Source: Phycisphaerae bacterium (GTDB lineage Bacteria; Planctomycetota; Phycisphaerae; Phycisphaerales; SM1A02). From it: 38,200 bases of DNA. The DNA lies in NCBI GenBank assembly GCA_016873355.1, contig VGXK01000001.1, forward strand, positions 1 through 38,200, read 5' to 3'. This document shows positions 18,641 through 38,200 of this stretch, in pieces (position 1 is the stretch's first letter; every line of letters begins with the position of its first letter). Both the position numbers and the translations under genes were made by a program. The notes beneath the pieces were generated by a model. It did no database searches. It saw only the letters and a program-made list of their open reading frames with translations, and was not told the origin of the DNA.

Positions 18641-18654
18641 GGATCACGCGAGCC

Positions 18655-21826: not shown

Positions 21827-21873
21827 CTGACGGCCGGCACGACGCCCTCGGCGAGCGGTCCTGACCCTGGTCC

Positions 21874-21882
21874 TGTGGACAA
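21874..21882 (-). promoter_or_regulatory. DnaA box variant TTGTCCACA
   Basis: Plus strand reads TGTGGACAA, 8/9 match to TTATCCACA. It shares the extended context TCCACAGG with the box at 22232-22240. Confidence 0.5.
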
Positions 21883-22074
21883 CCCGTCCTCGAGCTGTCT
21901 CGCGTCGGCGTCGGCGAAGGCCGATTCCACGCCGAAATCGAGCACCCGGACGAGCCCCAGGGCGACACTGACTGCAGCGGCACCGGCAGCGACTCGCTGT
22001 TGACAGGCTTTCCACCGCGGAATCGGGTGCTCAACGCCCTGATTCCCTGCGGTTTCCAAGCCGAACGGGTTCAA

Positions 22075-22083
22075 CCATCCACA
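22075..22083 (+). promoter_or_regulatory. Degenerate DnaA-box-like site CCATCCACA
   Basis: 7/9 match to TTATCCACA, in the opposite orientation to the other two boxes. Confidence 0.3.
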
Positions 22084-22210
22084 GTCGGACAGGGCTCTCT
22101 GCTGATAGGGAGAAAGAGTTCTTATGGAAGGGTGACACCGAGCCGCCGTGGCCTGCAGGATCTGTCATCGGCGCCATGGGCCGAAGGCGGGCGTGCCGTC
22201 GAATCCGGTA

Positions 22211-23191: not shown

Positions 23192-23213
23192 CGGCGCTTC
23201 ATATACTTCGCCC

Positions 23214-24290
23214 ATGTCCACTCAGCCATCGCCGCCGTCCTCGCCGCAACCAGGCCATGTGCGAAGCCAGGATCCGGTGAAGGCGATCGCCGAGACGCGG
23301 GAAGCGATCGGCCGGCTGCGCGCGGAGGTGCAGAAGGTGATCGTGGGGCAGGAGCAGGTCTTCGACCAGATCCTGCTCGCCATCTTCTGCGGCAGCCACG
23401 CGATCCTCGAAGGCGTGCCGGGACTGGCGAAGACGCTCATCATCAGCACGATCGCGAAATCGATGTCGCTCGAGTTCAGCCGCATCCAGTTCACGCCCGA
23501 CCTGATGCCGAGCGACATGACGGGCACCGAGGTGATCGAGGAGGACAAGTCGACGGGATCGCGCAGCCTTCGCTTCGTGCGCGGACCGATCTTTGCGCAC
23601 GTGGTGCTGGCGGACGAGATCAATCGCACGCCGCCGAAGACGCAGGCGGCGCTGCTCGAAGCGATGCAGGAGCGACAGGTCACCGTCGGCGGCGTGGCCC
23701 ACAAGCTGCCGACGCCGTTCTTCGTGCTCGCCACGCAGAACCCGATCGAGCAGGAAGGCACCTACCCGCTTCCCGAGGCGCAGCTCGATCGTTTCATGTT
23801 CAACATCCGCGTGCAGTACCCGAGCGAGCAGGAGGAATTCGAAGTGGTGCGCCGCACCACGAGCGGCACGGCGCCCGAGCCTTCGCCGGTGCTCGGTGCG
23901 CGCGACGTCACGCGCATCCAGGAGCTCGTGCGGCAGGTGCCGATCGCCGACCATCTCGTGCAATACGCGCTTCGGCTCGTGCGGGCGACGCGCTCCGGCG
24001 AGCACTCACCGAAGATCGTTCGCGATTACCTCTCCTGGGGCGCCGGCCCGCGCGCGAGTCAGTTCCTGGTGCTCGCCGCCAAGGCGCTTGCGGTGCTCGA
24101 GGGCGCCGAGCACGTCATGCCGGCGCACCTCCAGGCGGTGGCGCCGCCGATCCTTCGGCATCGGATCATCACGAACTTCAACGCCGAAGCCGACGGCGTC
24201 TCGAGCGATCGCATCGTCGAGACGCTGCTCGAGGAGATTCCCATCGATCGAGCCGCCGCGTCCGCACCGATCGGCCGCGTGATCTCGTAG
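23214..24290 (+). CDS. MoxR-family AAA+ ATPase
   Basis: VIVGQEQVFDQILLAIFCGSHAILEGVPGLAKT (Walker A variant typical of MoxR) and VVLADEINRTPPKTQAALLEAMQE. The start could lie a little downstream of ATG 23214. Confidence 0.92.
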   Translation: MSTQPSPPSSPQPGHVRSQDPVKAIAETREAIGRLRAEVQKVIVGQEQVFDQILLAIFCGSHAILEGVPGLAKTLIISTIAKSMSLEFSRIQFTPDLMPSDMTGTEVIEEDKSTGSRSLRFVRGPIFAHVVLADEINRTPPKTQAALLEAMQERQVTVGGVAHKLPTPFFVLATQNPIEQEGTYPLPEAQLDRFMFNIRVQYPSEQEEFEVVRRTTSGTAPEPSPVLGARDVTRIQELVRQVPIADHLVQYALRLVRATRSGEHSPKIVRDYLSWGAGPRASQFLVLAAKALAVLEGAEHVMPAHLQAVAPPILRHRIITNFNAEADGVSSDRIVETLLEEIPIDRAAASAPIGRVIS

Positions 24291-24297
24291 AAGCTTC

Positions 24298-25254
24298 ATG
24301 CGAGCCGAGCAGTACCTGGCGCCGGAGACGCTCTCGCAGCTCGCGCCGTTCTCGCTGCGGGCGCGGATGATCGTCGAGGGCGTGATGAGCGGCATGCACC
24401 GCTCTCCGTACCAGGGCCTCGCCGTCGAATTCGCGGAGCATCGTCCGTACACGCCCGGCGAAAGCCTTCGGCATCTCGACTGGAAGGTCTACGGGCGCAG
24501 CGACAAGCTCTACGTGAAGCGCTACCTCCAGGAGACGAACCTGGACGTGGTGCTGCTGATCGACGCCTCCGCGTCGATGCGCTTCGGAACGCTCGGTCAG
24601 AAGTCGGGATGGGGCGGAACCGAGGCGGGACGATCGCGCTCGCTGTGGACCAAGTTCGATTGCGCCACGGCCACGGCGGTGGCGCTCGCATACCTCTGCC
24701 TCGCGCAGCGGGACCGCGTGGGGCTCGTGCTCTTCGCCGACGGCGTGCAGGCGTCGCTGCGGCGATCGGGCGTGCGCGACCAGTGGCGCAAGATCGTGCA
24801 GGCGCTGACCACGGAACCGGTCGAACGCGCCACGATGATCGGCCGCAGCTGCGACGAAGTGCTGGCGACGACCCGCGGCCGCTGCCTCTTCTTCATCCTG
24901 AGCGACTTCCTCTTCCCGCCGGAGGAACTGCGGCTCGCGCTCGCGCGGCTGCGGCATCGAGGACACGACGTCGTGCTCGTCGAGATCCTCGACCGCCAGG
25001 AGATCCGCTTCGAGCTCGACGATCCGACGATCTTCGAGGGACTCGAAGGCGAGCCGCGCGTGATGGCGGACGCACGGCTTCTGCGGCGCGCCTACCTTGA
25101 CGAGCTCGCACGACATCGCGCGGAGATCGAACGACTCGTGCGCGGGTTCGGATACGACCGCGTGTCGCTCGACAGCCACGATTCGGTCGGTCCCGCGCTC
25201 GCCTCGCTGCTGGCGCGGCGCGAGGCGCTGGCGCGGCGGAGCGGCGCCGGATGA
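24298..25254 (+). CDS. DUF58-family (vWA-like) protein
   Basis: YVKRYLQETNLDVVLLIDASASMRFG is typical of DUF58 partners of MoxR. It starts 7 nt after the MoxR stop. Confidence 0.85.
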   Translation: MRAEQYLAPETLSQLAPFSLRARMIVEGVMSGMHRSPYQGLAVEFAEHRPYTPGESLRHLDWKVYGRSDKLYVKRYLQETNLDVVLLIDASASMRFGTLGQKSGWGGTEAGRSRSLWTKFDCATATAVALAYLCLAQRDRVGLVLFADGVQASLRRSGVRDQWRKIVQALTTEPVERATMIGRSCDEVLATTRGRCLFFILSDFLFPPEELRLALARLRHRGHDVVLVEILDRQEIRFELDDPTIFEGLEGEPRVMADARLLRRAYLDELARHRAEIERLVRGFGYDRVSLDSHDSVGPALASLLARREALARRSGAG

Positions 25255-27410
25255 ACCTGCTTCACCCCGGAATGGCGCTGGCCGCGCTCGCGGCCGTGAG
25301 CGTGCCGATCGTCATCCACCTGCTGCTCCGGCGGCGGCGGCGCGTGATCCAATGGGCGGCCATGGATCTGCTGAAGCGTGCGATGCAGCGAGACCGTCGT
25401 CGGCAGCGCGTCGAGCGCTGGCTGCTGCTCGCGGCGCGGTGTCTGCTCATCGCCATCGCGGGAATCGCGCTGGCGCAGCCGTTCGTGAAGTCGAGCGAGG
25501 CCTTCGGCGGCTCGGTGAGGACGGTGTGGCTCGTGATCGACGACGGCGTGGCGAGCGCGGAGCGCCTTCCCGACGGAAGCACGGCGCTCGAGCGGAGCAC
25601 GGCGGAGGGTCGGCGCATGCTCGAATCGCTCGGCGCCGCCGATCGCGTGGGCGTGATCTCCGCGGCGGCGCCGGTCCGACGGCTCGTCGACCCGCCGACC
25701 GCGGACAAGACGCGGCTCGATTCCCTGCTCTCGCAGATGTCGCCCGCCGACACCGGAAGCGATCTCTCCGCGGCGATTCGTTCCGCGGCGGAGGCGGCGC
25801 GGGAGTCGGAGGAGGCCGGCGAGATCGTGCTGCTCAGCGGATTCCGTCGCGGTTCGCTCGATCCATCGTCGATGGCGCCCTCGGTCGATGCGGAGGTGAA
25901 TGCCCGCTGGACGCTCTCGGCGCTCGAACCACTCTCGGGCTTCCCGTCGAACGCGTGGATGACGCGGGCGGAGGCGATCCGCACGGGCGAGGAGTCGGGA
26001 ATGGAAGGCGATCGCACGGTTCGCGTGCAGATCGAACGGCGGAGCGAGGCGCTTCCGCGAAGCGTTCGACGAGTCACCTCGGCGGGACCCGCGGCGGGCG
26101 CCGCCGACATCGCCCTGGACGCGGGCGAGCGCCGCGGCGGCGCCGATCTTCGGCTGCGGCGAGACGGCGCCGATGCGGAGGAATCGGGCGCCGCCTCGAT
26201 TTCGCTCGAGCTCGACCACGACGCCCAGCCGCGCGACGATCGACTCTTCGCGGTGCTTCCTTCCGAGCACCCGGCGCGGGTGGTCGTGCTCGATCGCCGC
26301 GGCGGTTCCGTGCGGGACCTCGAGCGCCTCGGCTCCGGCGTGTGGATGGCGCGAGCACTCGATCCCGGCAAGTCGGGCGCGCTCCAGGTGGACGAAGTCG
26401 ATCCGGGCTCGCTCGATCGCGCCATGCTCAAGGGCGCCGACGCGGCGATCGTGGCGAGACCCGATCTCGTGACCGCCGACGGATGGAAGATGCTGCGCGA
26501 GTTCGTCGCCGCCGGCGCCGCGCTGCTCGTGACGCCGTCGCCGGACGATTCCGGCCAGCGCTGGACGGAGTCGTTCCGAAGCTCGCTCGCGCCGTCGTGG
26601 ACGATCGATCCGGAAGTGGAGGGCGCGGTCACCGCGTGGCGGCTCGCGCCGCAGCAGCCCAGCTCGGCCACGCTGCGGCAGCTCGGCTCCGAGATTTCCG
26701 TGCTCGCGGCCCCGGTTTCGGTTTCGCGGCGGATCCGCATCGCCGCGCCGCCGACCGACGCGGAGGCGGCGCTCGTCTTCGACGACTCGACGCCGATGCT
26801 GCTCTGCGGTCGGCCGGGAGGCGCCTCGCGCGGATGGGTGGCGCTGCTCGCATGCGCCCCGGAGCTCTCGTGGACGGATCTGCCGGTTCGGCCGCTCATG
26901 GTCCCGCTGCTCCAGGAGGTCGTGCGACAGGGCCGGGCGCTCGCGACGATGGACGCGGGCAACCTCGTCGGCGCGCCGGCGTCGCTTCCGCGCGGCGCGG
27001 CGGCGCTCGAGATCGTTCCGCCCGCAGGTTCGGAGGGTGCGCCGCGAGGGACCGCGATCCTTCCCGCCGGCGCGGACGGGCGCACGCGCGATCCGGTGCT
27101 TGCGCCGGGACTTCACCGGGCGCTCGACGACTCGGGCCGCCCGATCGGCACCGTCGCCGTGAACGTCGATCCCGCCCGCGCGAGCATCGAGCCGAACGAT
27201 CCCGGCGCGGTTCTGGCGTGGCTCGAGCGAAGCGGATCGTGGCGCTGGCGCGGCGACGGATCGACCGAAGGAGAGGGCGCCTCCGCGAGCGCCGATGCCG
27301 AGGCGTCCTGGAGCATCTGGCTGCTCGGCGCGGCGGTCGCGCTCGCGCTGCTCGAGACGATCATGGCGCGGCTGCTGAGCCGAAGCGACGCGACGGAGCG
27401 CGGCGCATGA
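25251..27410 (+). CDS. BatA_N-type double-transmembrane protein with a degenerate vWA-like region (719 aa)
   Basis: ATGA overlap with the DUF58 stop. N-terminus MNLLHPGMALAALAAVSVPIVIHLLLRRRRR matches the aerotolerance-regulator N-terminal double-TM pattern. VWLVIDDGVAS lacks an intact DxSxS. A C-terminal TM span is present. Confidence 0.8.
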   Translation: MNLLHPGMALAALAAVSVPIVIHLLLRRRRRVIQWAAMDLLKRAMQRDRRRQRVERWLLLAARCLLIAIAGIALAQPFVKSSEAFGGSVRTVWLVIDDGVASAERLPDGSTALERSTAEGRRMLESLGAADRVGVISAAAPVRRLVDPPTADKTRLDSLLSQMSPADTGSDLSAAIRSAAEAARESEEAGEIVLLSGFRRGSLDPSSMAPSVDAEVNARWTLSALEPLSGFPSNAWMTRAEAIRTGEESGMEGDRTVRVQIERRSEALPRSVRRVTSAGPAAGAADIALDAGERRGGADLRLRRDGADAEESGAASISLELDHDAQPRDDRLFAVLPSEHPARVVVLDRRGGSVRDLERLGSGVWMARALDPGKSGALQVDEVDPGSLDRAMLKGADAAIVARPDLVTADGWKMLREFVAAGAALLVTPSPDDSGQRWTESFRSSLAPSWTIDPEVEGAVTAWRLAPQQPSSATLRQLGSEISVLAAPVSVSRRIRIAAPPTDAEAALVFDDSTPMLLCGRPGGASRGWVALLACAPELSWTDLPVRPLMVPLLQEVVRQGRALATMDAGNLVGAPASLPRGAAALEIVPPAGSEGAPRGTAILPAGADGRTRDPVLAPGLHRALDDSGRPIGTVAVNVDPARASIEPNDPGAVLAWLERSGSWRWRGDGSTEGEGASASADAEASWSIWLLGAAVALALLETIMARLLSRSDATERGA

Positions 27411-29725
27411 ACTGGATCGAGTCGACCGTCGCGTGGCTGCTGCGGCTTCCGAGCGATCACGCCGCGGGATCCTGGCGCTTCGGATTCGAGCGGCCGATTC
27501 CCGGCTGGGCATGGCTGCTCGCGGCGGTCGCCGCGGTGCTCGTCGGCGCGTGGTCGGTTCGAGCGTCGACGCTTCCGCGCGGTCGCCGATCGCTCATCGC
27601 GGCGCTTCGAGCGCTGCTGCTTCTGCTGCTGGCGCTGCTGCTCACGGGGCCGATGCTCACGCTTCCGCGCGAGCGCGTGGAGCCGGACTGGGTGCTCGTG
27701 GTGGCCGATCGCAGCGCGTCGTTGCGCGTGGGGGACGTGGAGCTCGACGGCGCGATGATCTCGCGCGACGCGCAGCTCGAGCGAGCCGTTCGAGGAAGTG
27801 CGGCGGTCTGGAAGGAACTCGATGCGACGCGTCGCGTCGTCTTCCTCGGATTCGACGCGGGGCTGCGGGAACTCGAGATCGACGAGCAGGGTCTGCCGAC
27901 GCTCGGCGCCGCCGACGGCATGGCCACGGAGATCGGGCCCGCGATCTCGGCGGCGCTCGATCGCGCGGCGGCGAGGCCGGTGGCCGGCGTCGTGCTGCTT
28001 TCCGACGGCCGCACGACCGTGCCGCCCGAGCGCGGATTGCTGCGCCGACTCTCGGCCGAAGGCGTGCGCGTGCACGTGGTGCCGCTCGGCGCCGACGCTC
28101 CGAGCGGGGATCACGCCATCCGCGCGATCGAAGCGCCGCAGCGCGCGTTCGTGCGCGACGAAGTGCCGATCGAGGTGGACCTCGATCGATCGCCGGGCGT
28201 CGGCGGCGCGCTGCGCGTGAAGCTCGTGGACGAGCAGAGCGGGCGACTGCTCGACGCGGCGGAGTTCGACGACGCCGAGACCGGCCGTCGCACGGTCACG
28301 CTCATCGGCCGGGCCGACGATCCGGGCGAGCGCTCGTGGCGCGTCGAGATCGAGCCGCAAGGGCGCGATCTCGTCGCCGACAACAACTCGAAGTCGTTGC
28401 GAATCGAGATCGTCGATCGACCGATCCGCGTGCTGTTCGTCGAGGGATATCCGCGCTGGGAGTACCGCTACCTGAAGAACCTGCTCGTGCGCGAGCACGG
28501 CATCGAGAGCTCGGTGATGCTGCTGTCGGCCGATCGCGACTTCGCCCAGGAAGGCAACGCGCCGCTCACGCGATTGCCGCGCACGAAGGAGGAATTCGCC
28601 GGATACGACCTGATCGTGATCGGCGACGTTCCCGCGGGGGCGTTCTCGTCGGCGCAGATGGAGGCGATCAAGGATCTCGTCTCCACGCGCGGCGCGGGCG
28701 TGCTCTGGATCGGCGGCGCGCGGCAGATGCCGCGGAGCTGGAAGGGGTCGGCGCTCGAGGAGCTGCTTCCGATCAAGGGATCGCTCGAGCTCGAGCGCTT
28801 CGACGAATCGGTGACGATGCGCCCGACGCCGCGCGCGCTGCGGCTCGGCCTCATGCGCGTGGAGGGGGCGCCGACGCCCGGATGGCCCGAGGCGCTCTCG
28901 TCGCCCGACACCGGGTGGTCGCGACTCGAGTGGGCGCAGCGGCTCGAGCCCGGAGATCTGAAGCCGACCGCGGAAGTGATCGCGGAGACGGCCTCGGGCG
29001 ACGGCGGCCGCGCGTCGCCGCTGCTCGTGTCGATGCGCTACGGCGCGGGGCAATCGATGTACCTGGCCACCGACGAGACCTGGCGCTGGCGCTACGGCCG
29101 CGGCGAGACGCTTCCCGAGCGCTTCTGGCTTCAGTTGCTGCGATCGCTTTCGCGGAGCGGCATGCACGGAAGCGATCGTCCGGTCGAGATCGTCGTGGAG
29201 CCGCGCCGCGCCGAGATCGGCGATCCCGTTCGCGTCGAAGTCGAGTTCCGCGATCCCGAGGCGATTCGCCCGGCGCCGTCTCGATTGCAGGCGAGCGTGT
29301 CGATCTCGCGCGAGCGAAGCGCGGCACCCGAGGATGCGGGCGTGGTCGAATTGACCCAGGTCGAGGGGATTCCCGGTCGATGGGTCGGCACGTTCTTCCC
29401 GGACCGAAGCGGAATGCACGCGATCTCGCTCCAGGGCCACGCGGGCGTCACGGCCGAGCTCGAAGTGGCCCGCACCGACCAGGAATCCGCGAATCCCCAG
29501 GCGGATCACGCATTGCTTTCGCACATTGCCGAGCAGACGCAGGGCGAGGTGATCGAGCCCGATTCGCTCCATCGGCTGCTGCGAGGCGACGTGCTGCCCA
29601 ACCGGGCCGTGACGATCGAGAACCCGCGGATCCATTCGCTCTGGGACACGCCGCTCGCCCTGATCCTGTTGATCCTCGTTCCAGCGGTCGAATGGAGTGT
29701 CCGACGATGGTCGAGGCTAGCCTGA
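27407..29725 (+). CDS. Double-TM vWA protein (intact DxSxS) with a C-terminal glutamine-amidotransferase-like region (772 aa)
   Basis: ATGA overlap with the previous stop. Two N-terminal TM spans, then WVLVVADRSASLRV (MIDAS). Later come RVLFVEGYPRWEYRYLKNLL ... DLIVIGDV ... GAGVLWIGG, then a C-terminal TM span LALILLILVPAVEW. The GATase-like call is tentative. Confidence 0.75.
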   Translation: MNWIESTVAWLLRLPSDHAAGSWRFGFERPIPGWAWLLAAVAAVLVGAWSVRASTLPRGRRSLIAALRALLLLLLALLLTGPMLTLPRERVEPDWVLVVADRSASLRVGDVELDGAMISRDAQLERAVRGSAAVWKELDATRRVVFLGFDAGLRELEIDEQGLPTLGAADGMATEIGPAISAALDRAAARPVAGVVLLSDGRTTVPPERGLLRRLSAEGVRVHVVPLGADAPSGDHAIRAIEAPQRAFVRDEVPIEVDLDRSPGVGGALRVKLVDEQSGRLLDAAEFDDAETGRRTVTLIGRADDPGERSWRVEIEPQGRDLVADNNSKSLRIEIVDRPIRVLFVEGYPRWEYRYLKNLLVREHGIESSVMLLSADRDFAQEGNAPLTRLPRTKEEFAGYDLIVIGDVPAGAFSSAQMEAIKDLVSTRGAGVLWIGGARQMPRSWKGSALEELLPIKGSLELERFDESVTMRPTPRALRLGLMRVEGAPTPGWPEALSSPDTGWSRLEWAQRLEPGDLKPTAEVIAETASGDGGRASPLLVSMRYGAGQSMYLATDETWRWRYGRGETLPERFWLQLLRSLSRSGMHGSDRPVEIVVEPRRAEIGDPVRVEVEFRDPEAIRPAPSRLQASVSISRERSAAPEDAGVVELTQVEGIPGRWVGTFFPDRSGMHAISLQGHAGVTAELEVARTDQESANPQADHALLSHIAEQTQGEVIEPDSLHRLLRGDVLPNRAVTIENPRIHSLWDTPLALILLILVPAVEWSVRRWSRLA

Positions 29726-29791
29726 TGCGGTTCGACGGCGGCGCCGCAGCGTCGGCAATCGCCGACTCGAAGCGTCGGTAAGAGGAGGTCC

Positions 29792-32700
29792 ATGCCGGCG
29801 ATGACGAGCATCGTGGAACGCCTGGAGCGCCTGCGGCGCCGTGCGCGCCTGGTGCTCCTGAGCGAGCGAAGCGCGGTGCTGCTCGCCGTGGCGATCGGCG
29901 CCGCGATGGGCTGGGTCGCCCTCGACGCCCTGCTTCGATTCCCCGCCACGCTGCGCTTCGTGGCGCTCGTGGTCGGCGTGATCGCGATCGCGTCGGCGAT
30001 CGCGCGATGGTGGTGGCCGGCGGCACGGTTCCGACCGTCGCTTCCGACGCTCGCGCTGCGGGTGGAGCGGCAGCGGCCGGACCTTGCGGGGCGGCTCGCC
30101 TCCGGCGTCGAGTTCGCGCAGCGTCCGGCGCCGGGCGTGCTCGAGAAGCGAGTCGTCGAATCGACGGAGCGGCTGGCCGGCGACGATCCGTTCACCGGCG
30201 TGATCCGCCGCGATCGATTGCGCCGCGCCCTTGTCGGCTGCGGCGCGGCGCTCGTGGCCGTGGCGGCGATCGCGGCCTTCCAACCGGAGTTCGCCGCGAT
30301 CGGCGCGAAGCGCCTGTTCGCGCCATGGAGCAGCGCGGAATGGCCCGCGCGGACGCTCGTGCAGTCGCTCATGGAAGGCGTCACGCATCTGCCGCGCGGT
30401 CGCGCGGTGCTGCTCCGCGCGGAGGCGGTGCGAGGGGATCCGGCGTCGATGCGCCCGTTCGTGCGCTATCGAACGACGCGGCAGGGCGTGGCGGGTCCGT
30501 GGCGGGACGCGGCGCTGGCGCGGCAGCACGGCGAGGTCTTCGAGCGACCGCTCGAGGTCGACGCCGATTCGATCGAGTTCCGCTTCGGCACGAGCGACGC
30601 GATGACCGACGCCGCGACGATCCACTTCGTGCGTCCGCCGGCGATCGAGCGAGCCACGCTGCGCGCCGAGCCGCCGGCGTACGCGTCCGCGGTGCAGGCG
30701 CCGAGCGAGACGGAGCTCGGCCCGGGAACGGACGCCCGCGCCACGCTCGCGGCGCCGCTGCTCGCCGGAAGCCGCGTGGAGCTCGACTTCGCGTTCAATC
30801 GCGAACTGCCGGTGCCTCGGCCGGACGACGACTCGCGCCGCGAGTGGCTGCGCCGCACGTTCGGCGGCGACCTGCCGGAGTCGACGCAGGTGGAGGCGCC
30901 GAACGCCCTGAGCGACCGCGTCACGCTGCGATTCGAGGCGAGCGACGATCTCGACCTTCCGATCGAGCTGCGCGACGAGCACGGAATCGTGGGCGACGAC
31001 GGTGCGCGATATCGGCTCGCGGTGTCGCCCGATCGTCCGCCCGCGGCGTCGATCACGGATCCCGCCGCGGACGAGATCGTGCTGCCGAGCGCGGCGCTCG
31101 CGGTGACGGCGGAGGCGAGGGACGACCTTTCGATCGACGAGATCGGCGTGCGCGTCGAGAAGGTCGGCGGCGAGGTGCGCGACACGATGGAGCGCCGGCG
31201 CGGCGAGAGCGCTCGCCTGTCGACCACCGTGACGCCGGAGCAGTTCGGCGCGGGGCCGGGCGACACGCTGCTCGTGTCCGCGATCGCCACCGACGACTTC
31301 GAGCAGGACGGCGTGCGCCGCGAGCCCACGATCTCGCCGCCGCGCCGGATCCGCGTGGTGAGCGAGGAGGAATTCACGCGGCAGATCCGGACGCAACTGG
31401 CGGCGATCCGCCATTCGGCGATCCGCGCGGAGGCGACGCAGCGCGAGATCATCGCGTCGACGGCGCCGAGCGAGCCGGCGGAGCCGGGCGAGCAGACGGA
31501 TCCGAACGCGGCGGCCGACGGCGACGGCGCGAACGCCGACCCCGATCGAGCGAACGCCGACGCGACCGCGCCGAAGCCGAGCGCCGAGGAGCTCGCGCGA
31601 CGGCAGGCGCGGGTCTCCGATCGCATCCAGGGAATGTCGGCCGCGATCGAGTCGCTCCAGTCCCGCGCCCGCGCGGGCGGACTCGAGCGCGACGCGATGA
31701 ACGAGATCCTGCGGCAATCGCAGGACCTGCTCGAAAACGCCGCGAGCCGGTCGGCGCAGGCGTCCACGCAACTCGCGGAGCGGGGCACCACGCCCGAGGC
31801 GGCCGAGTCCCAGGAAGCGGTCCGGGCCGAGCTCGAGGATCTCGTGCGCCTGCTCGATCGCGACGAGGACGCGTGGGTGGCCACGCGCCGCATCGAGCGA
31901 TTGCGAGAACAGATCGAGGGGCTGCTCGAGGAGACGCGTCGAACCGGCGAGCGCACCGTCGGCCGCGATCTCGAGCGCCTGTCGGCCGAGGAGCGCGTGG
32001 CGATCGATCGGCTCGCGTCGCGCGATCGCTCGGTGGCCGACGAGGCTCGCGAGACGATGGAGGAGCTGCGCGACCGCGCCGCCCGCCTGGCGGAGGCGGA
32101 TCGAGCCCGCGCGGCCGGCATGCAGGAGGCGGCGCGACGCGGCGAGGAGCGGCAGATCGCGCGGCGCGTGGAGCAGGCGGCCGAGGCGACGGCGCTCAAT
32201 CAGCCGACGAATGCGGAGCAGGCGCTGCGCGAGGCCGCCGAGACCGCGCAGAGCATGATGGACGCGATTCGAGACGATCGCCGCTCGCGCGTGGAGGAAT
32301 TGCGGCGTCGGCTTGCGGGTCTCGAGCAGAGCATCCAGGGGCTCGTGACGCAGGCGCAGACGGCGCTGTCGGCGCTGCGGGAGGCGGCGCCGACCGCGTC
32401 GGCGGCGTCGGACCTTGCACCGGTCAGCGAGGGCGTCGTGTCGCTCGATCGCAACATCGGCGCCGTGACGGACGAGGCGAGATCGGGCGGCGGCACGGAA
32501 CGGGTCGCCCGCGTGCTCGAGCGGGCGGGCGAGCGAAGCGCCGCGAGCGCCGGGCTGCTTCGCGCGGATCCGCCGCGCGTGCCCGAGGGGGACGAGGCCC
32601 TCGATCGCTCGCGGGGATTGCTCGTCGATGCGCTCGAAGCCGTGCGCGAGCAGCGGCGGAACACCGAGCAGCAGCAGGCGGACGCGAAGCGCCGCGAACT

Positions 32701-33364
32701 TGCGGCCGCGCTTCGAACGCTCTCGGAGCGCCAGGCGGGACTGCGGACCGCGAGCGAGCCGCTCGAGGGAGCGAAGTCCGCCGATCGACGACGGCTCGTC
32801 GAGGGTCGACGACTCTCGGTCGAGCAGTCGCTCATCCGGACCGCCGTGAACAATCTCAAGAGCGAGAACGAGGAGCTGGCGTCGAGCGATCTGTTCGTCT
32901 CGGCGCTGGCCAGGCTCGATGGCTGGATGGTCCGAAGCGAGTCGTCGCTGTCGTCGCTCTCGGTGACGAAGTGGACGCTCGAGGAGCAGTCGCTTTCCGC
33001 GGAAACGCTCGCGATGATGGGGCAGGCGCTCGCGGATGCGTCGGCATCCGACGATCCGTTCGCGGAAGCCGCGGGCGCGGCCGCGGGAGGCGCCGAAGCG
33101 GGCGGCGAAGGCGCGCAGGCGGGTCGTCGACCGCCGGCGATTCCGCCGGTGGCGGAACTCAAGCTCCTGCGCGAGTCGCAGGCGCAGCTTGCGCGTCGAA
33201 CCCGCATGGCCGACGAGGGAGGATTGACCGCGGCCGAGCGCCAGACGAGGCTGCGCGAACTCACGCAGCTTCAGCAGGAACTGCTCGACCAGGGCGAGGC
33301 CTGGATGGAGCGCATGCGGCAGATGTCGCCCGGCGGCACAGCGGAGGGCGCCGATGCGAAGTGA
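29792..33364 (+). CDS. 1190-aa membrane protein: three N-terminal TM spans, a beta-rich middle and a long Glu/Arg/Ala-rich coiled-coil C-terminal half (DUF4175-like)
   Basis: AAGAGGAGG lies before the ATG. TM spans are AVLLAVAIGAAMGWVALDALL, FVALVVGVIAIASAIARWWW and ALVGCGAALVAVAAIAAF. From about residue 560 onward it reads as continuous heptad-like helical sequence. The DUF4175 family assignment is from memory and tentative. Confidence 0.7.
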   Translation: MPAMTSIVERLERLRRRARLVLLSERSAVLLAVAIGAAMGWVALDALLRFPATLRFVALVVGVIAIASAIARWWWPAARFRPSLPTLALRVERQRPDLAGRLASGVEFAQRPAPGVLEKRVVESTERLAGDDPFTGVIRRDRLRRALVGCGAALVAVAAIAAFQPEFAAIGAKRLFAPWSSAEWPARTLVQSLMEGVTHLPRGRAVLLRAEAVRGDPASMRPFVRYRTTRQGVAGPWRDAALARQHGEVFERPLEVDADSIEFRFGTSDAMTDAATIHFVRPPAIERATLRAEPPAYASAVQAPSETELGPGTDARATLAAPLLAGSRVELDFAFNRELPVPRPDDDSRREWLRRTFGGDLPESTQVEAPNALSDRVTLRFEASDDLDLPIELRDEHGIVGDDGARYRLAVSPDRPPAASITDPAADEIVLPSAALAVTAEARDDLSIDEIGVRVEKVGGEVRDTMERRRGESARLSTTVTPEQFGAGPGDTLLVSAIATDDFEQDGVRREPTISPPRRIRVVSEEEFTRQIRTQLAAIRHSAIRAEATQREIIASTAPSEPAEPGEQTDPNAAADGDGANADPDRANADATAPKPSAEELARRQARVSDRIQGMSAAIESLQSRARAGGLERDAMNEILRQSQDLLENAASRSAQASTQLAERGTTPEAAESQEAVRAELEDLVRLLDRDEDAWVATRRIERLREQIEGLLEETRRTGERTVGRDLERLSAEERVAIDRLASRDRSVADEARETMEELRDRAARLAEADRARAAGMQEAARRGEERQIARRVEQAAEATALNQPTNAEQALREAAETAQSMMDAIRDDRRSRVEELRRRLAGLEQSIQGLVTQAQTALSALREAAPTASAASDLAPVSEGVVSLDRNIGAVTDEARSGGGTERVARVLERAGERSAASAGLLRADPPRVPEGDEALDRSRGLLVDALEAVREQRRNTEQQQADAKRRELAAALRTLSERQAGLRTASEPLEGAKSADRRRLVEGRRLSVEQSLIRTAVNNLKSENEELASSDLFVSALARLDGWMVRSESSLSSLSVTKWTLEEQSLSAETLAMMGQALADASASDDPFAEAAGAAAGGAEAGGEGAQAGRRPPAIPPVAELKLLRESQAQLARRTRMADEGGLTAAERQTRLRELTQLQQELLDQGEAWMERMRQMSPGGTAEGADAK

Positions 33365-33380
33365 TCGACGACGATGCGGG

Positions 33381-34148
33381 ATGACGACGACGGCGATTTC
33401 GCTCTGCCTCTGTGTGCTGTCGTTCGCGACCCCGCCGGCGCCCGCGCCGGCGCCGCCGCCGTCCGAATCGCCGCCGCCCGCCGCGCCCGCGCCCCCTCCG
33501 ACGCTCGACGACCTGCTCGGCTTGACGCCTCGAGCGGACGGCTCGACACCGCGCGGCGACGCCGATGCGCCGGCCCCCGGCGACGGCGAGCGCGGCGCGA
33601 CCCCGGGCGACGGCGCCCGCGCCCGCCTCGATCGCACGCTTCGCGAGGAGGAGCTCGAGGACGCCTTCGCGCAGGCGGTCGAGCTCATGCGCGAATCCGC
33701 CGATCGCCTCGGCGCCCGTGCCGACCTGGGCATCGACACGCAGCGCGTGCAGGAGGACGCGGTGCGACGACTCGATTCGATCATCGATGCGGCCAAGCGG
33801 ATGCGCCAACAGCAGCAATCGCAGCGATCGTCGTCGCGGAACCGCCAGGACTCGTCGTCGCAGCAGCCGCAGGGCGGCGAGCAGGAGATGCAGGCCGCGG
33901 CGCGTCGAGAAGCAAACGCGGCGCAGCGACGGGAACAGCGCGGTTCGCAGCAGGGCCAGGCGGAGCCTCCCGGACTCGAGGAAGGCGAGCTCGACGAGAC
34001 GATGCACGAGGGTCGCGTCGAGTGGGGATCGCTGCCCGAGCGCATTCGCGAGCTCGTGCAGCAGGGCCGGCGCGATCGCGTCTCCACGCTCTACCTGCGA
34101 TTGACGGGCGAGTACTACCGGCGCATGGCGGAGGAGGCGTCGCGGTGA
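33381..34148 (+). CDS. Hypothetical secreted protein (255 aa): signal peptide, Pro/Ala linker, Gln/Arg-rich region
   Basis: Begins MTTTAISLCLCVLSFATPPAPAPAPPP and ends LYLRLTGEYYRRMAEEASR. It starts 16 nt after the previous stop, and its stop overlaps the next start (GTGA). Confidence 0.6.
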   Translation: MTTTAISLCLCVLSFATPPAPAPAPPPSESPPPAAPAPPPTLDDLLGLTPRADGSTPRGDADAPAPGDGERGATPGDGARARLDRTLREEELEDAFAQAVELMRESADRLGARADLGIDTQRVQEDAVRRLDSIIDAAKRMRQQQQSQRSSSRNRQDSSSQQPQGGEQEMQAAARREANAAQRREQRGSQQGQAEPPGLEEGELDETMHEGRVEWGSLPERIRELVQQGRRDRVSTLYLRLTGEYYRRMAEEASR

Positions 34149-35305
34149 AGTCGATCGCCATCGTCGCGATCGCCGGCGCGCTGTTCGCCGCGCCGCCGAC
34201 GCCGAATCGCGCGCCGCCCGCCGAACCAAGCTCCCCTCCGTCGTCGTCGCCGCCGAGCGATTCGGAACCCGCACCCGTCGTTCCGCCGCGCGGCGAGCCC
34301 GATCCCGCGATCGAACCGCCCGATCCTGCGCCGCCGAAGCCGACGGCACAGAACAATCCGACCCGCGACGAGATCACGCCCGAGATGGAGCAGTCGATCG
34401 ATCGCGGACTCCGCTACCTCGCGTCGATCCAGAACGCCGATGGAACGTTCGGTCGCAATCGCTACTCCAAGAACGTGGCGATCACGGCGCTGGCGGGACT
34501 CGCGTTCATGGCCGACGGCAACCTGCCCGATCGCGGGCGCTACGGCGAGGTCGTGCGCCGCGCGCTCGACTTCGTGATCGCGGCGAGCACGGAGACGGGC
34601 CTGCTCGTGGCGGAGGGTTCGCACGGACCCATGTACGGCCACGGATTCGCGGCCCTCTTCCTCGGCGAGATCTACGGCATGAATCCGCAGGACGATCGCG
34701 TGCGCGACGCGCTCGTGCGAGCCGTGCAGCTCATCCAGAACAGCCAGAACCAGGAGGGCGGCTGGCGCTACAACCCGGTGCCGAACGACGCCGACGTGAG
34801 CGTCACCATCTGCGAGATCATGGCGCTTCGAAGTGCGCGGAACGCCGGCATCAAGGTGGAGCGCGACACGATCGACCGCGCGGTGCAGTACGTGCGCGAC
34901 TGCCAGAATCCCGACGGCGGCTTCCGCTACATGATCAGCGCCGGTCCAAGCGCCTGGCCCCGCAGCGCCGCGGGCGTGGCGAGCCTCTATTACGCCGGCA
35001 TCTACCAGGACGACGCGATCGACCGAGGACTCGAGTACCTGGTTCGCAACGCCTTCCCCGACGGCTCGGGCCCCGGATCGCAGACGCACTACTTCTACGG
35101 CCACTATTACGCGGTGCAGGCGATGTACCTGGCCGGCGGCGACCGATGGCGGCGCTGGTGGCCGGCGATCCGCGACGAGCTCGTGACGAAGCAGGACGAG
35201 ATGGGCGCCTGGTCGGACTACCAGTTCGGCCAGGCGTACTCGACCTCGATGTCGCTCATCATCCTTCAGATGCCGAAGCGATACCTGCCGATCTTCCAGA
35301 AATGA
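34145..35305 (+). CDS. Secreted prenyltransferase/squalene-oxidase-repeat (alpha/alpha-toroid, terpene-cyclase-like) protein (386 aa)
   Basis: GTG 34145 overlaps the previous TGA. Signal peptide and Pro-rich linker are followed by repeated motifs IQNADGTFG, SQNQEGGWRY and CQNPDGGFRY with intervening helical segments. Confidence 0.8.
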   Translation: MKSIAIVAIAGALFAAPPTPNRAPPAEPSSPPSSSPPSDSEPAPVVPPRGEPDPAIEPPDPAPPKPTAQNNPTRDEITPEMEQSIDRGLRYLASIQNADGTFGRNRYSKNVAITALAGLAFMADGNLPDRGRYGEVVRRALDFVIAASTETGLLVAEGSHGPMYGHGFAALFLGEIYGMNPQDDRVRDALVRAVQLIQNSQNQEGGWRYNPVPNDADVSVTICEIMALRSARNAGIKVERDTIDRAVQYVRDCQNPDGGFRYMISAGPSAWPRSAAGVASLYYAGIYQDDAIDRGLEYLVRNAFPDGSGPGSQTHYFYGHYYAVQAMYLAGGDRWRRWWPAIRDELVTKQDEMGAWSDYQFGQAYSTSMSLIILQMPKRYLPIFQK

Positions 35306-36765
35306 GCGTTTCCCCCGGCGCGATGCGTTGTCGGCGGGCGAGGCATGCGACGGCCGGCGCGCGAGCCGATTGCGCCGCCGTCTCGGTGCGGGCCATGAAC
35401 GGCATGCACGGCATGCACGGCATGCTCGCCGTGCTCGCCGCCCTGCTCGCTCCCGCCCTGCTCGTCGCGAGCGCGGATGCTCAGTTGCTTCGGCCGCCGC
35501 TACCGCGGGGCGAGACGCGTCCGATCGAGGCCGCGCCGCCGCCCGACGCGCCGACGGCGTCCCCGCCGACTCCGGCGCTCGGCGAGACGACGAGCATTCG
35601 AGCAACCGTGCTTCGCGCCGACGGCAACCACGCCTCGGGTGCGATTTCGCGCATCGACGACAGGGGCGTCGCCCTGCGAGCCGCCGACGGCGCGGAGAAG
35701 CGCAGCGAATGGCGCGACGTGCTCGGCCTGCTCGTCGACGGCGACGCGCGCGGAACGATGGACGGACCCGGATGGATCGTGCTCGCCGACGGCCAGCGAC
35801 TTCCCGGCGCCGAGGAGTCGAACGCCTCGGGCTGGCGATGGCGGCAGCCGCTCCTCGGCACGATCGAGCCGCCGTCCGGGTCGATCCGCGCGCTCTCGCT
35901 CGAAGGGGCGGCGCCGCCCCCGCCGATGCCCGGCGCCGACGTGATCCTGCTGCGCACGGGAGATCGGCTCGAAGGCTTCGTGTCGCGCCTGGCCGATCCG
36001 CTGCCGATCGAGACGCACGCGCCGGGTGCGCCCACGCTCGTGCCGATGAGTTCCGTGGCGGCGATCTCCTTCGTCACGGGCGATGCGGCGCCGGATCCGA
36101 CGCGGCGCCGGATCTGGACGAGCGACGGACTCGTGATCGACGCGGCGATCGTGCGCTACGGCGGCGGCGACGCGATGACGCTCGAGGGGCTCTCGATTCC
36201 CGGCGCGGCCGAGGCGACGATTCCGCTCGACCGCGTGCTGGCGATCTCGGGGGAGATCGCGGCGGCGCCGCTGGCGCAGCGTTCCATGACCGCGATCGAG
36301 ACGCCGCAGGGCGCCGTGCAGCGCTACGCGCTCACGCCGCCGCAGCGACTGCGCTGGCCGGACGAGCGCCCGAACGGAACGAAGGACGAGGCCGAGCGCG
36401 TGCTCGAGCGCGGCGAATGGCCGCTCGGACTCCAGCCGATCGCCTTCGACGGTCCCGCGATCCTCCGCATCGAGATCGACGCGCCGTCGACGCTCGTGGC
36501 AACGCTGCGGCTGCCCCGAGATCGCCGACCGCTGGGCCGGTTCGAGGTGGTCGCGCGCAGCGGCGGAGCGACGACGGGCCCGCTCTCGCTGGACGATGGG
36601 CGGCGCGAGCACGAGATCCGCATCGAGGCCGTGCCGCCGGCGATCGAGTTCGAGATCGTGGACACGGGAGGCGGTCCCGTCCAGGACGGCTTCGTGATCG
36701 AGCGGGGCGTGCTCATTCCGAAGTCGAACTCGGGCGCCAGCGATCGCGGTCGAAGCGATCGCTGA
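35302..36765 (+). CDS. Hypothetical secreted beta-rich protein with about four internal repeats
   Basis: ATG 35302 overlaps the previous TGA (ATGA). The alternative start ATG 35395 sits directly before the signal peptide MNGMHGMHGMLAVLAALLAPALLVASADA. Recurring pattern: VLRADGNHASG, VLADGQRLPG, LLRTGDRLEG, WTSDGLVIDA. Confidence 0.6.
   Translation: MSVSPGAMRCRRARHATAGARADCAAVSVRAMNGMHGMHGMLAVLAALLAPALLVASADAQLLRPPLPRGETRPIEAAPPPDAPTASPPTPALGETTSIRATVLRADGNHASGAISRIDDRGVALRAADGAEKRSEWRDVLGLLVDGDARGTMDGPGWIVLADGQRLPGAEESNASGWRWRQPLLGTIEPPSGSIRALSLEGAAPPPPMPGADVILLRTGDRLEGFVSRLADPLPIETHAPGAPTLVPMSSVAAISFVTGDAAPDPTRRRIWTSDGLVIDAAIVRYGGGDAMTLEGLSIPGAAEATIPLDRVLAISGEIAAAPLAQRSMTAIETPQGAVQRYALTPPQRLRWPDERPNGTKDEAERVLERGEWPLGLQPIAFDGPAILRIEIDAPSTLVATLRLPRDRRPLGRFEVVARSGGATTGPLSLDDGRREHEIRIEAVPPAIEFEIVDTGGGPVQDGFVIERGVLIPKSNSGASDRGRSDR
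35401..35427 (+). repeat. 9-bp tandem repeat x3 (GGCATGCAC, GGCATGCAC, GGCATGCTC)
   Basis: Read directly from the sequence. It is in frame, encodes GMHGMHGML at the extreme N-terminus of the signal peptide, and each unit contains the palindrome GCATGC. Confidence 0.9.
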
Positions 36766-38200
36766 TCCAGCCGAACGCGGGATCGAGTCGCCATCGCCTG
36801 GCTCCGCGCGGGGGCGCATGTCGAGCGATGCCGTCGTGCATCGCACGCAGCGCCGACATCGGAACCGGCGGGTGCTCCGGGAGCGACTCGAACGCCGGCG
36901 TCGATGCGCCGAATCCATGCGGCGACGAGGGCTCCCCGGCCGTCACGACCAGTCGCCGATCGGGCGGCGCCGCGTCGTCCCTTCGGAAACGAAGCTCGAG
37001 CGATGCGCCGCCGTCGCCCGCCCGGACGCTCGATGCGGGCGAGATCGGCTCGACGGGAACGCCGCGCGCCGCGGCGATCGCGAGCATGCGGCCGGGCACC
37101 ATCGAGGCCGGCGAGTCGAGCATCGACTCGACGACGAGCAGTCGATCGATCGACGCGAGCTCGAGCAGGTCCGGCACGGCGCCCATCGACTCGAGCGAGT
37201 GCTCCGTGACGACGACCGCGTCGAAGCGAGTCACGCCGAGCTCGACCGCGGCGCGCAGGATGGAGCGGGCCGCGGAACTTCCGGGTGCGCCGACGCCCAT
37301 CGAGCGGCCCGAGTCGCCCGCGTCGACGAGCAGCGCCGAGCGACCGGCGATCACGAGCGAACAGCGAGCGCGGCCGAGATCGAGGACCACGATCTGCGGC
37401 TCGCGGCCGGCCGAGGGCAGGAGCGGCATCAGCGCGACGACGATCCACGCACCCGCGAGCGCCATCGCCGCGCGCCGGTTCCGCTTCGACGCCGACACGA
37501 TCAGAAACGGCAGCGCGATGGCGACGAGCGACCACCACGCGGGAGGTCGAGGCAGGAGCGCGGTGGCCCCCGGAAGCGTCGCCACGCCTTCGACGGCGGC
37601 GAGGAAGACCGACCCGAGCATCGCCAGCAGCCAGCCGAGCGGCGCCGCGACCTCGATCGACCACGCCGCGACGACGGCGGCGAGCGTGCCCACGAGGGCG
37701 ATCGCCGACGCAAGCGGCGCGAGCACGACCGACGCCGGAATCGCCCAGGGCGCGCACTGCCCGAAGTGATGCAGCGTGATCGGCGTCACCACGATCCACG
37801 CCGCCAGCGATGCTGCGATCGGCCGCACCGCCATGCGAGTCAGCGCCACGCGACGAAGTCCTTCGGGATGCACGATTCCGCGCCGCACCAGATCGGGGCG
37901 ACGGCGCACGCTCCACCAGTGCGCGCGGTCGCAGAGTCGCTCGAGGCGTGCCGAGAGCGTCGGCGCCACTTCGAGCAGCGCCGCCACCGCCCCGAAACTG
38001 AGCTGGAACGCCGCGTCGCGCGCGTCGGCGGGATCGACCGCGGTCACCACGATCGCCACGACCGCGAGAATCGACGACGCGGGCCACGATCGCCCGGCGA
38101 GCAGCGCCGCTCCCGCGATCGAACCCGCAAGACCGGCGCGCAGCACCGACACCTGCGATTCGAGCACGAGCAGGAAGACGATCGACGCGCCGAGCAGGAT
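36713..38200 (-). CDS. comEC: ComEC/Rec2-family DNA internalisation channel protein, N-terminus beyond the window
   Basis: Polytopic membrane region with the conserved AFQLSFGAVAAL motif, followed by an MBL-like domain (SALLVDAGDSG ...). The frame is open to nt 38200. The last 53 nt overlap the convergent gene ending at 36765. Confidence 0.8.
   Translation of the reverse strand: MLLGASIVFLLVLESQVSVLRAGLAGSIAGAALLAGRSWPASSILAVVAIVVTAVDPADARDAAFQLSFGAVAALLEVAPTLSARLERLCDRAHWWSVRRRPDLVRRGIVHPEGLRRVALTRMAVRPIAASLAAWIVVTPITLHHFGQCAPWAIPASVVLAPLASAIALVGTLAAVVAAWSIEVAAPLGWLLAMLGSVFLAAVEGVATLPGATALLPRPPAWWSLVAIALPFLIVSASKRNRRAAMALAGAWIVVALMPLLPSAGREPQIVVLDLGRARCSLVIAGRSALLVDAGDSGRSMGVGAPGSSAARSILRAAVELGVTRFDAVVVTEHSLESMGAVPDLLELASIDRLLVVESMLDSPASMVPGRMLAIAAARGVPVEPISPASSVRAGDGGASLELRFRRDDAAPPDRRLVVTAGEPSSPHGFGASTPAFESLPEHPPVPMSALRAMHDGIARHAPPRGARRWRLDPAFGWISDRFDRDRWRPSSTSE

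Follow-up and report, generated by a model that had tools for sequence, protein, structure and literature searches.

A two-module MoxR-DUF58-BatA-type gene cluster of the Phycisphaerae with a split DUF4175-superfamily protein

Do the four genes that follow a MoxR-DUF58-BatA-type core in a Phycisphaerae bacterium belong with that core, and what might the eight gene products do together? The question is raised by positions 23214-36765 of a 38,200-nucleotide (nt) stretch of DNA (contig VGXK01000001.1, assembly GCA_016873355.1; hereafter the window, meaning the whole stretch analysed), for which a sequence-only reading had proposed an operon of eight translationally coupled genes in fixed stoichiometry. 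We report that the eight genes recur in the same order in many relatives, that they fall into two modules, and that genes 5 and 6 specify two parts of one DUF4175-type protein whose link to the core is older than the Planctomycetota.

Results

The eight genes form a conserved cluster of two modules

The window has a base composition of ∼70% GC and contains long spurious open reading frames (ORFs) in every frame. Translation of the eight plus-strand frames returned intact ORFs with no internal stops at the coordinates proposed by the sequence-only reading, and all eight carry a coding signature by GC content at codon positions (0.83-0.88 at third positions and low at second positions). Because of this pattern, and because homologues stand in the same order at more than 100 other loci, the eight frames are genuine genes and not chance ORFs of high-GC DNA. 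The base composition of the operon is that of its flanks within the window. The genes are as follows.

Gene 1 (MoxR): 23214-24290, plus strand, 358 residues
Gene 2 (DUF58): 24298-25254, plus strand, 318 residues
Gene 3 (BatA_N/von Willebrand factor A, vWA): 25251-27410, plus strand, 719 residues
Gene 4 (vWA/GATase1-like): 27407-29725, plus strand, 772 residues
Spacer between modules A and B: 29726-29791, plus strand, 66 nt
Gene 5 (divergent DUF4175 superfamily): 29792-33364, plus strand, 1190 residues
Gene 6 (split-off C-terminal part of the gene 5 protein): 33354-34148 (start at 33381 in the sequence-only reading), plus strand, 264 residues from 33354
Gene 7 (predicted α/α toroid): 34145-35305, plus strand, 386 residues
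Gene 8 (probably NPCBM-like): 35302-36765, start possibly 35395, plus strand, 487 residues

The overlapping junctions described previously were all reproduced (ATGA at 25251-25254, 27407-27410 and 35302-35305; GTGA at 34145-34148), as were the intergenic gaps of 7, 66 and 16 nt, the last with gene 6 starting at 33381. From the overlapping stop and start codons we infer translational coupling at these junctions. Most gene starts stand as they had been given, but two need revision or caution. Gene 6 more likely starts at the ATG at 33354, which has GGAGG 7 nt upstream and adds a basic n-region (MRSDRRR) ahead of the hydrophobic core; this start replaces the 16-nt gap with an 11-nt overlap with gene 5, and in a related locus (L001) gene 6 as called also begins inside gene 5, with an overlap of 14 nt. 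The ATGA start of gene 8 is uncertain because its first ∼31 residues are unconserved in relatives (residues ∼1-31 could be aligned neither to 96 homologues from neighbouring ORFs nor in a search of 1.84 billion representatives), and the gene may instead start at 35395.

By its database matches, the window belongs with Phycisphaerae-type Planctomycetota. Conservation was followed in two scans. The first took gene 4 as its anchor among the GTDB species representatives and gave 80 loci (39-76% identity); the second took gene 5, with a narrowed alignment, as its anchor in metagenomes. Downstream counts for gene 4 refer to loci with at least 9 kb of downstream sequence (n = 52) and upstream counts to the 65 loci with sufficient sequence on that side. 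The sequence-only reading had named beforehand, as an outcome that would speak against it, an absence of co-occurrence of genes 5-8 with the MoxR core in relatives. The genes do co-occur: genes 5-6-7 were found after gene 4 in 47/52 loci (none of genes 5-8 in 5/52), and gene 4 was found upstream of gene 5 in 39/46 metagenome loci. Further, genes 2 and 3 lie upstream of gene 4 in 64/65 loci, with MoxR as well in 46/65, and genes 6 and 7 lie downstream of gene 5 in all 50 loci scored. Wherever a complete ORF follows gene 7, it is a gene 8 homologue (hidden Markov model (HMM) E ≤ 1e-57; 1e-22 in L002), including 14 cases missed by tblastn. Overall, the order 1-8 is kept in more than 100 loci, down to ∼40% identity for gene 4 and 23-30% for gene 5.

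The junctions, counted from estimated start positions, show where the cluster divides. A 4-nt stop/start overlap is available between genes 3 and 4 in 103/113 loci, whereas genes 4 and 5 are separated by a spacer (median ∼107 nt, interquartile range 61-148) that measures at least 40 nt in 107/131 loci and 10 nt or less in 8/131. In the window this spacer carries AAGAGGAGG immediately ahead of the gene 5 ATG, a strong Shine-Dalgarno sequence of gene 5's own; among close relatives, no conserved sequence was found in the 4-5 spacer. The cluster is also broken up in several ways: in one locus (L083) genes 1-4 stand next to a psd gene on the opposite strand, another (L085) runs from DUF58 through gene 8 without MoxR, a third (L084) has gene 4 alone, and four (L143, L160, L151 and L165) have genes 5-8 without genes 1-4 within 10 kb. 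Taken together, the comparisons point to two modules, A (genes 2-3-4, with gene 1 optional) and B (genes 5-6-7-8). Uniform coupling of all eight genes does not hold, given the 4-5 spacer in nearly all relatives, the Shine-Dalgarno sequence of gene 5 and the separable modules; nor is a fixed stoichiometry implied for the whole set, in which MoxR, moreover, is not adjacent in 19/65 loci.

About 30% of related loci begin at DUF58 with no MoxR within several kb (L009, L011/L085, L020, L058, L060, L064, L066, L067 and others). At L085, DUF58 is preceded by a gene for a 252-residue protein without a Pfam match and by an opposite-strand lgt gene.

Module A encodes a predicted MoxR ATPase, a DUF58 protein and two paralogous membrane vWA proteins

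The sequence-only reading had recognised MoxR, DUF58 with the motif DASAS, a BatA_N protein with a degenerate vWA domain (IDDGVAS) and a second vWA protein with an intact DRSAS, and domain searches agree with each of these assignments. Gene 1 matches Pfam AAA_3 (1.2e-63, 213 bits) and AAA_lid_2 (1.7e-18), has Walker A (GVPGLAKT) and Walker B (DEINR) motifs and no membrane segment, and by these features encodes a cytoplasmic MoxR-type AAA+ ATPase. It also matches chelatase and RavA models, weakly, and, at 40 bits, the bpMoxR model for MoxR-vWA-β-propeller ternary systems. Gene 2 matches Pfam DUF58 (2.4e-35), has the DxSxS motif as DASAS, with D.S.SM kept in 100 homologues, and showed no hydrophobic membrane segment in the hydrophobicity analysis; its product is a predicted cytoplasmic vWA-like protein and likely serves as the cytoplasmic adaptor of MoxR.

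Gene 3 matches Pfam BatA (1.8e-16) and VWA_2 (4.7e-08) and TIGR02226 (5.6e-19). Its product comprises a BatA_N double-transmembrane segment with 11 Lys and Arg residues in the loop between the two helices, a vWA domain with IDDGVAS at the metal ion-dependent adhesion site (MIDAS), a long region predicted to be periplasmic and a C-terminal transmembrane helix; the MIDAS serines are unconserved throughout the family. The gene 4 product has no Pfam match by itself. Its homologues match VWA (21/30), DUF7408 (15/30) and GATase1_like (12/30), and its profile finds GATase1-like entries in the PDB (3soz, 2gk3 and 3rht). At its MIDAS (DRSAS), D101, S103, S105 and D200 do not vary among 30 homologues and T174 hardly does, and an AlphaFold2 model (predicted local distance difference test (pLDDT) score 84.7) places two transmembrane helices, the vWA domain, a β-sandwich, an α/β domain, a second β-sandwich and a final transmembrane helix in that order. 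Genes 3 and 4 align over 560 columns (hhalign 96.7%, E 3.8e-10), which marks them as full-length paralogues of which only gene 4 retains an intact MIDAS; they therefore constitute a MIDAS-dead and MIDAS-active pair.

By hydrophobicity and the positive-inside rule, the large domains of the products of genes 3-8 are predicted to be periplasmic. The topology that the sequence-only reading had put forward, with a cytoplasmic ATPase, inner-membrane vWA proteins and periplasmic domains, fits the sequence and agrees with that of the BatA-like protein BB0173, an inner-membrane protein with a periplasmic vWA domain whose topology was determined experimentally (PMC5700661).

Genes 5 and 6 encode two parts of one DUF4175-type protein

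The gene 5 product had been described as a coiled-coil giant with three transmembrane segments. The three hydrophobic helices are present, but the AlphaFold2 model (pLDDT 87.9) predicts, with high confidence, a β-sandwich array (∼185-522) and a folded bundle of long helices (∼525-1180) in place of a simple coiled coil; a small helical loop with conserved motifs (∼65-144) is predicted to be cytoplasmic. Foldseek searches with this model returned solely tandem immunoglobulin/macroglobulin-domain arrays at low TM-score, and whole-chain searches with the gene 5 and gene 4 models gave generic multi-domain matches (TM-score ∼0.1), which support domain types and not function.

Compared with DUF4175 (PF13779, gathering threshold 27.3 bits), the gene 5 protein of the window gave no match even at E ≤ 1, and 6/29 members of its family matched weakly. 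The gene 5 profile, however, retrieves five proteins that lie above the DUF4175 threshold: P0154 (3e-132; PF13779 score 38.6 bits), P0157 (9e-24; 54.2 bits), P0159 (4e-18; 46.1 bits), P0161 (4e-15; 100.7 bits) and P0163 (2e-8; 29.7 bits). Because its profile finds these proteins, we place gene 5, by sequence, in the DUF4175 superfamily as a divergent member. It shares with DUF4175/TIGR02302 proteins the N-terminal transmembrane helices, an extracytoplasmic region of ∼1000 residues and Gly/Gln-rich low-complexity stretches. It differs from them in that the window protein falls below the Pfam threshold and in that the C-terminal module, including the characteristic Y..L...YF/YY..LA end, is present here but encoded on a separate gene, gene 6.

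The gene 6 product consists of a signal or anchor segment, a Pro-rich linker, the motif LDDLLG and a helical, Q-rich region, and it closes with the C-terminal motif EWGxLPxRxR...YYRRLAEE. A single reading frame covers genes 5 and 6 in six loci (L014, L087, L118, L125, L128 and L144) and in four protein clusters (P0006, P0007, P0010 and P0018; 1427-1518 residues), the fusions spanning 1355-1524 codons overall. In the fusions the hydrophobic N-terminus of gene 6 is gone and the Pro-rich linker and LDDLLG are retained, and the gene 6 domain is therefore predicted to remain on the periplasmic side. In addition, an HMM of the C-terminal 51 residues of gene 6 matches the very ends of unsplit giants, namely P0155 (31 bits, 1632-1676 of 1682) and the acidobacterial P0163 (17.7 bits, 1180-1209 of 1215), and more weakly P0162 and P0156. 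The reference set for these E-values comprised only 165 proteins, and the consistent placement at the extreme C-terminus is the stronger argument. The full-length gene 6 HMM did not detect the unsplit giants; the 51-residue model alone did. LDDLLG is absent from the DUF4175 proteins of other phyla and is therefore lineage-specific by this comparison. Overall, gene 6 is the C-terminal module that has been split off from the gene 5 protein; its earlier description as an independent secreted protein is contradicted by its fusion to gene 5 in several lineages and by the presence of its end motif on unsplit giants.

Genes 7 and 8 are predicted periplasmic proteins of the Planctomycetota

As the sequence-only reading had it, the products of genes 6-8 each combine a signal peptide with a Pro-rich linker: in every one, a hydrophobic stretch at the N-terminus precedes a linker that has 11-14 prolines in 30 residues. 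Gene 7 is the most conserved distal gene (53-95% identity between loci, with long invariant motifs). It matches Pfam SQHop_cyclase_C (3.7e-12) and Prenyltrans (1.6e-06), and its product is predicted to be a periplasmic single α/α toroid of the prenyltransferase/squalene-cyclase repeat type. Against the PDB, its similarity lies at the level of the repeat and not of the active site, several repeats of a target being matched interchangeably. A more specific assignment, as a class II cyclase enzyme, was considered and rejected at the motif level: DxDD is absent, the conserved motif is DADVSVT, and a single toroid of ∼300 residues stands in place of the two-domain cyclase architecture of ∼630 residues.

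In gene 8, the Pro-rich linker is followed by repeated β motifs (DGQ..PG and TGD..G) and a C-terminal NPCBM-like β-sandwich. An NPCBM match was obtained for 6/30 homologues (best 5.6e-25), and SH3-type matches were weak (E 0.013-0.19), in few of the 30, and did not include the window protein. The family is small (235 representative clusters among 1.84 billion). Its members are probably periplasmic, SH3-like/NPCBM-like, glycan-binding proteins.

The association of the core with gene 5 extends beyond the Planctomycetota

An acidobacterial locus (L168, GCA_016789705.1) has the order DUF4159, MoxR, DUF58, BatA, DUF4175-like, VWA/GATase1_like. The gene 4 HMM matches its orthologue there over the full length (E 1.7e-80). 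As in the window, orthologues of genes 1-5 stand together, and the giant bears the gene 6 end motif at its own C-terminus. Unlike the window, this locus has the order 1-2-3-5-4, an unsplit giant and an additional DUF4159 gene, and it lacks genes 7 and 8. Because this MoxR-DUF58 cluster holds a DUF4175-like giant between its BatA-type and VWA/GATase1-like genes, the association of the core with gene 5 predates the Planctomycetota.

The sequence-only reading had set the four distal genes outside the classical Bat set. This is correct in that the Bat operon lacks them, but DUF4175-like giants lie inside acidobacterial MoxR-DUF58-BatA clusters. Among the loci compared, genes 7 and 8 were found only in those of Planctomycetota; they alone are lineage-specific, and genes 1-5, with gene 6 as a part of gene 5, make up a multi-phylum set.

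Other loci show further arrangements of these families. At L169, an unsplit giant of 1682 residues directly follows a gene 4 orthologue, with BatA and DUF58 nearby on the opposite strand. A TARA marine contig (L170) lacks genes 7 and 8 but has homologues of genes 5 and 6 beside a gene with a BatD domain on the opposite strand. Additional DUF4175 loci have DUF4159, TPR/Peptidase_MA_2 or MoxR as neighbours. No DUF4159 match was found among the eight products, the rest of the window not having been scanned exhaustively.

The cluster lies beside dnaA and fpg

The operon is bounded by the following genes.

fpg/mutM: 22211-23191, minus strand, upstream boundary, divergent from gene 1 (Pfam Fapy_DNA_glyco/H2TH; MPELPEV start at 23191)
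dnaA: 20360-21826, plus strand, just beyond fpg (Pfam Bac_DnaA)
comEC-like gene: 36713-38200, minus strand, downstream boundary, convergent, continuing past the window end (Pfam Competence, 5e-31)

The local order Lactamase_B_2 (plus), dnaA (plus), fpg (minus), MoxR (window 18826-23221) recurs in 41/80 GTDB loci, and the loci without an adjacent MoxR are also without dnaA and fpg. Cumulative GC skew reaches its minimum at ∼19000-20000, and because the skew changes sign at ∼20 kb, the neighbourhood is probably the replication-origin region.

Between the fpg start (complement 23189-23191) and the MoxR ATG (23214) there are 22 nt. TATACT (23202-23207) stands 6 nt upstream of this ATG, and there is no Shine-Dalgarno sequence, which suggests that the MoxR mRNA is leaderless; the arrangement 'aacTATACTtc...ATG' is repeated in six loci (L022, labelled Phycisphaera mikurensis, and L027, L029, L051, L063 and L087). 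The promoter scan returned no promoter-like sites and the terminator scan a single terminator-like site, on the wrong strand; Rfam and tRNA scans gave no matches. At the downstream boundary, gene 8 and the comEC-like gene share 53 nt at their 3' ends (36713-36765), leaving no room for an intergenic terminator; in L001 the corresponding overlap is 86 nt. A comEC-like gene is also the downstream neighbour in L001, L085 and 24 scanned loci.

Elsewhere in the window, a minus-strand ORF of 1912 residues (6276-12014) matches VIT (7e-31) and VWA_3 (4.5e-16) and represents a second vWA-type giant, unlinked to the operon. The minus strand at 15400-18643 carries a set of genes for signalling and repair: an ORF with HDOD and a degenerate GGDEF domain (15400-17268), recO (16869-17672) and a response-regulator diguanylate cyclase (17693-18643); the recO ORF overlaps the HDOD/GGDEF ORF, and one of the two calls is questionable.

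Discussion

A periplasmic complex controlled by MoxR is the favoured reading

What was observed here comprises the gene content of the cluster and its homologies, the occurrence of genes 5 and 6 in both split and fused form, the paralogy of genes 3 and 4, the synteny and the predicted topology. Because of the deep synteny, the gene 5/6 split and fusion, the acidobacterial interleaving, the shared topology, the dnaA/fpg location and the lack of matches to defence models, we favour, at about even chances, a chromosomally fixed, housekeeping-type cluster of two modules whose products would form a MoxR-controlled, inner-membrane-anchored periplasmic complex for envelope organisation. The conserved dnaA/fpg position and the absence of PADLOC matches argue for a core cellular function.

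In the mechanism that we propose, the products of all eight genes would assemble as a single complex anchored in the inner membrane. Those of genes 3 and 4 would each present a basic cytoplasmic loop between two N-terminal transmembrane helices, a periplasmic vWA/GATase1-like ectodomain and a C-terminal transmembrane helix, and genes 5 and 6 together would supply a split DUF4175-type inner-membrane protein with a periplasmic β-sandwich and helical-bundle ectodomain. Using ATP, MoxR and DUF58 would act on cytoplasmic loops in the products of genes 3, 4 and 5, and this would either assemble the complex or switch the conformation of a periplasmic MIDAS scaffold, built from genes 3 and 4, that would hold the DUF4175 ectodomain plus its partners; genes 7 and 8 would add two lineage-specific periplasmic binding proteins. 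We infer a physical association and an action of the ATPase across the membrane from the comparisons above, and a role of the operon in the envelope is suggested by analogy. The direct targets of the envelope regulator CenR in R. sphaeroides include a MoxR gene as well as a TIGR02302/DUF4175 gene (PMC9275681), a co-regulation that bears on this possible envelope role only as a lead.

Several observations weigh against this reading. The modules stand apart in 5/52 and 7/46 loci (∼10-15%), MoxR is not adjacent in 19/65, and gene 4 stands alone in two loci (L026/L084). A spacer separates genes 4 and 5, the latter being preceded by a Shine-Dalgarno sequence of its own. The NPCBM match comes from only 6/30 gene 8 relatives and not from the window protein. 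In addition, the ATPase and the vWA ectodomains are predicted to lie across the membrane from each other, with short loops as the sole route of coupling, an arrangement for which we found no precedent here.

A more specific mechanism, which we regard as very unlikely, would make the cluster a trans-envelope machine with integrin-like 'inside-out' signalling that acts in envelope growth or constriction of the Phycisphaerae. MoxR and DUF58 would act on the basic loops of genes 3 and 4 and thereby open the periplasmic MIDAS of gene 4. Once open, this MIDAS would bind an acidic motif in the split DUF4175 protein, for which the invariant LDDLLG in gene 6 is a candidate; genes 7 and 8 would anchor the assembly to the cell wall or outer membrane. 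To our knowledge, Phycisphaerae divide without FtsZ. A role in envelope growth or constriction is hinted at by the dnaA-side position, by the annotation of the Acinetobacter division protein AdvA as DUF4175 (PMC7481262) and by the envelope/division regulon of CenR (PMC9275681).

Other explanations of the cluster are less compatible with the comparisons

Alternatively, the cluster could be two independent neighbouring systems, a Bat-like operon (genes 1-4) and, next to it, a periplasmic operon (genes 5-8) that has a promoter of its own and serves an unrelated function. The conserved 4-5 spacer, the strong Shine-Dalgarno sequence of gene 5 and the loci in which one module occurs without the other (L083 with genes 1-4 only; L143, L160, L151 and L165 with genes 5-8 only) speak for such an arrangement. 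It is nevertheless unlikely: the modules adjoin in ∼85-90% of loci across deep divergence, the acidobacterial DUF4175-like gene lies within the core, between the gene 3 and gene 4 orthologues, and at L169 the gene 4 orthologue is immediately upstream of the unsplit giant. Separate transcription, moreover, would be compatible with a shared complex. Genes 1-4 might instead be a MoxR/vWA maturation chaperone that serves the gene 7 toroid by metal or cofactor insertion, folding or export, in analogy to CoxD/CoxE, NorQ/NorD, CbbQ/CbbO and the Mg/Co chelatases. Among the distal proteins, that of gene 7 is indeed the best conserved, and its long invariant motifs are those expected of an enzyme or tight binder; MoxR matches chelatase and RavA models weakly, and gene 4 keeps a full MIDAS metal site. 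But in other phyla gene 7 is missing where the core and its DUF4175 partner occur, the predicted topology puts the vWA domains in the periplasm and the ATPase in the cytoplasm, and the cyclase likeness of gene 7 is confined to a repeat motif in a single toroid without DxDD, so that we consider this analogy improbable.

An aerotolerance or oxidative-stress system like the Bat operon of Bacteroides fragilis would share the MoxR-DUF58-BatA_N/vWA core, and Bat-type genes of Borrelia respond to oxygen (PMC5700661); we rate it as quite improbable in view of the absence of BatC (TPR) and BatD, the weak evidence for a BatE-like SH3 domain and the lack of any hint of redox chemistry in genes 5-8, the Bat phenotype itself being without a known mechanism. 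Membership among the mobile MoxR-vWA conflict or anti-phage systems is hardly credible. The bpMoxR match of gene 1 would point that way, but AAA_3 is far stronger (213 bits against 40), none of the eight proteins has a PADLOC match, there is no β-propeller partner, the dnaA/fpg-side position is kept in 41/80 loci and the composition is that of the flanks; with no PADLOC match and a fixed chromosomal position, identity as a defence system is largely refuted, and we rejected it.

Significance of the cluster

MoxR-DUF58-BatA clusters occur in many bacterial phyla. What was known of the present one is this core; what is new is a Phycisphaerae version with periplasmic partners, namely the split DUF4175 protein and genes 7 and 8. 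The operon thus supplies the core with a defined, strongly conserved set of periplasmic partners, among which the DUF4175-type giant is an old companion. From the natural occurrence of genes 5 and 6 as split and as fused forms, it can be read which pieces work as a single polypeptide. The paralogues, one with an active and one with a dead MIDAS, suggest a heteromeric scaffold, and by its conserved dnaA-side position the cluster belongs to the basic cell biology of a bacterial class that is still poorly understood.

Comparison with known systems

In the literature on DUF4175, on DUF4159/TIGR02226/DUF1355/TIGR02302, on MoxR together with DUF58 and on Bat/aerotolerance in Planctomycetes, we found no description of the cluster. 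Kamneva et al. 2012 was considered as a source for such an operon in the Planctomycetes-Verrucomicrobia-Chlamydiae (PVC) group and rejected, as that paper covers DUF1501 clusters. By its description, the RL3499-RL3502 operon of Rhizobium leguminosarum is a broadly conserved set of four genes for MoxR, DUF58 and membrane proteins, compared with eight genes here. Its mutation reportedly causes defects of cell morphology and envelope integrity, to go by the title alone of a 2011 study by Vanderlinde and colleagues. Among the systems compared, this operon gives the strongest experimental hint of the envelope role considered above. We know of no DUF4175, toroid or NPCBM-like partner for it.

In the MoxR-vWA chaperone pairs RavA-ViaA, CbbQ-CbbO, NorQ-NorD and CoxD-CoxE, an AAA+ MoxR ATPase is likewise partnered with a vWA/MIDAS protein. 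There, however, the vWA protein and its client share the compartment of the ATPase, whereas for genes 3 and 4 the MIDAS-bearing domains are predicted to lie in the periplasm.

The BatI operon of Bacteroides fragilis, the Borrelia genes bb0170-bb0176 and the Leptospira bat genes resemble the present cluster in that MoxR and DUF58 adjoin BatA_N double-transmembrane proteins with periplasmic vWA/MIDAS domains. The classical Bat set has BatC (TPR) and BatD (PF13584) members, for which no TPR or BatD match was found in the eight proteins here. BatB is a second, short membrane vWA protein; gene 4, which may correspond to it by its vWA domain with an intact MIDAS, encodes a 772-residue paralogue of gene 3 with GATase1-like/DUF7408 domains. 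Finally, the classical Bat operon is without the split DUF4175, toroid and NPCBM-like genes, all of which are present in the Phycisphaerae cluster.

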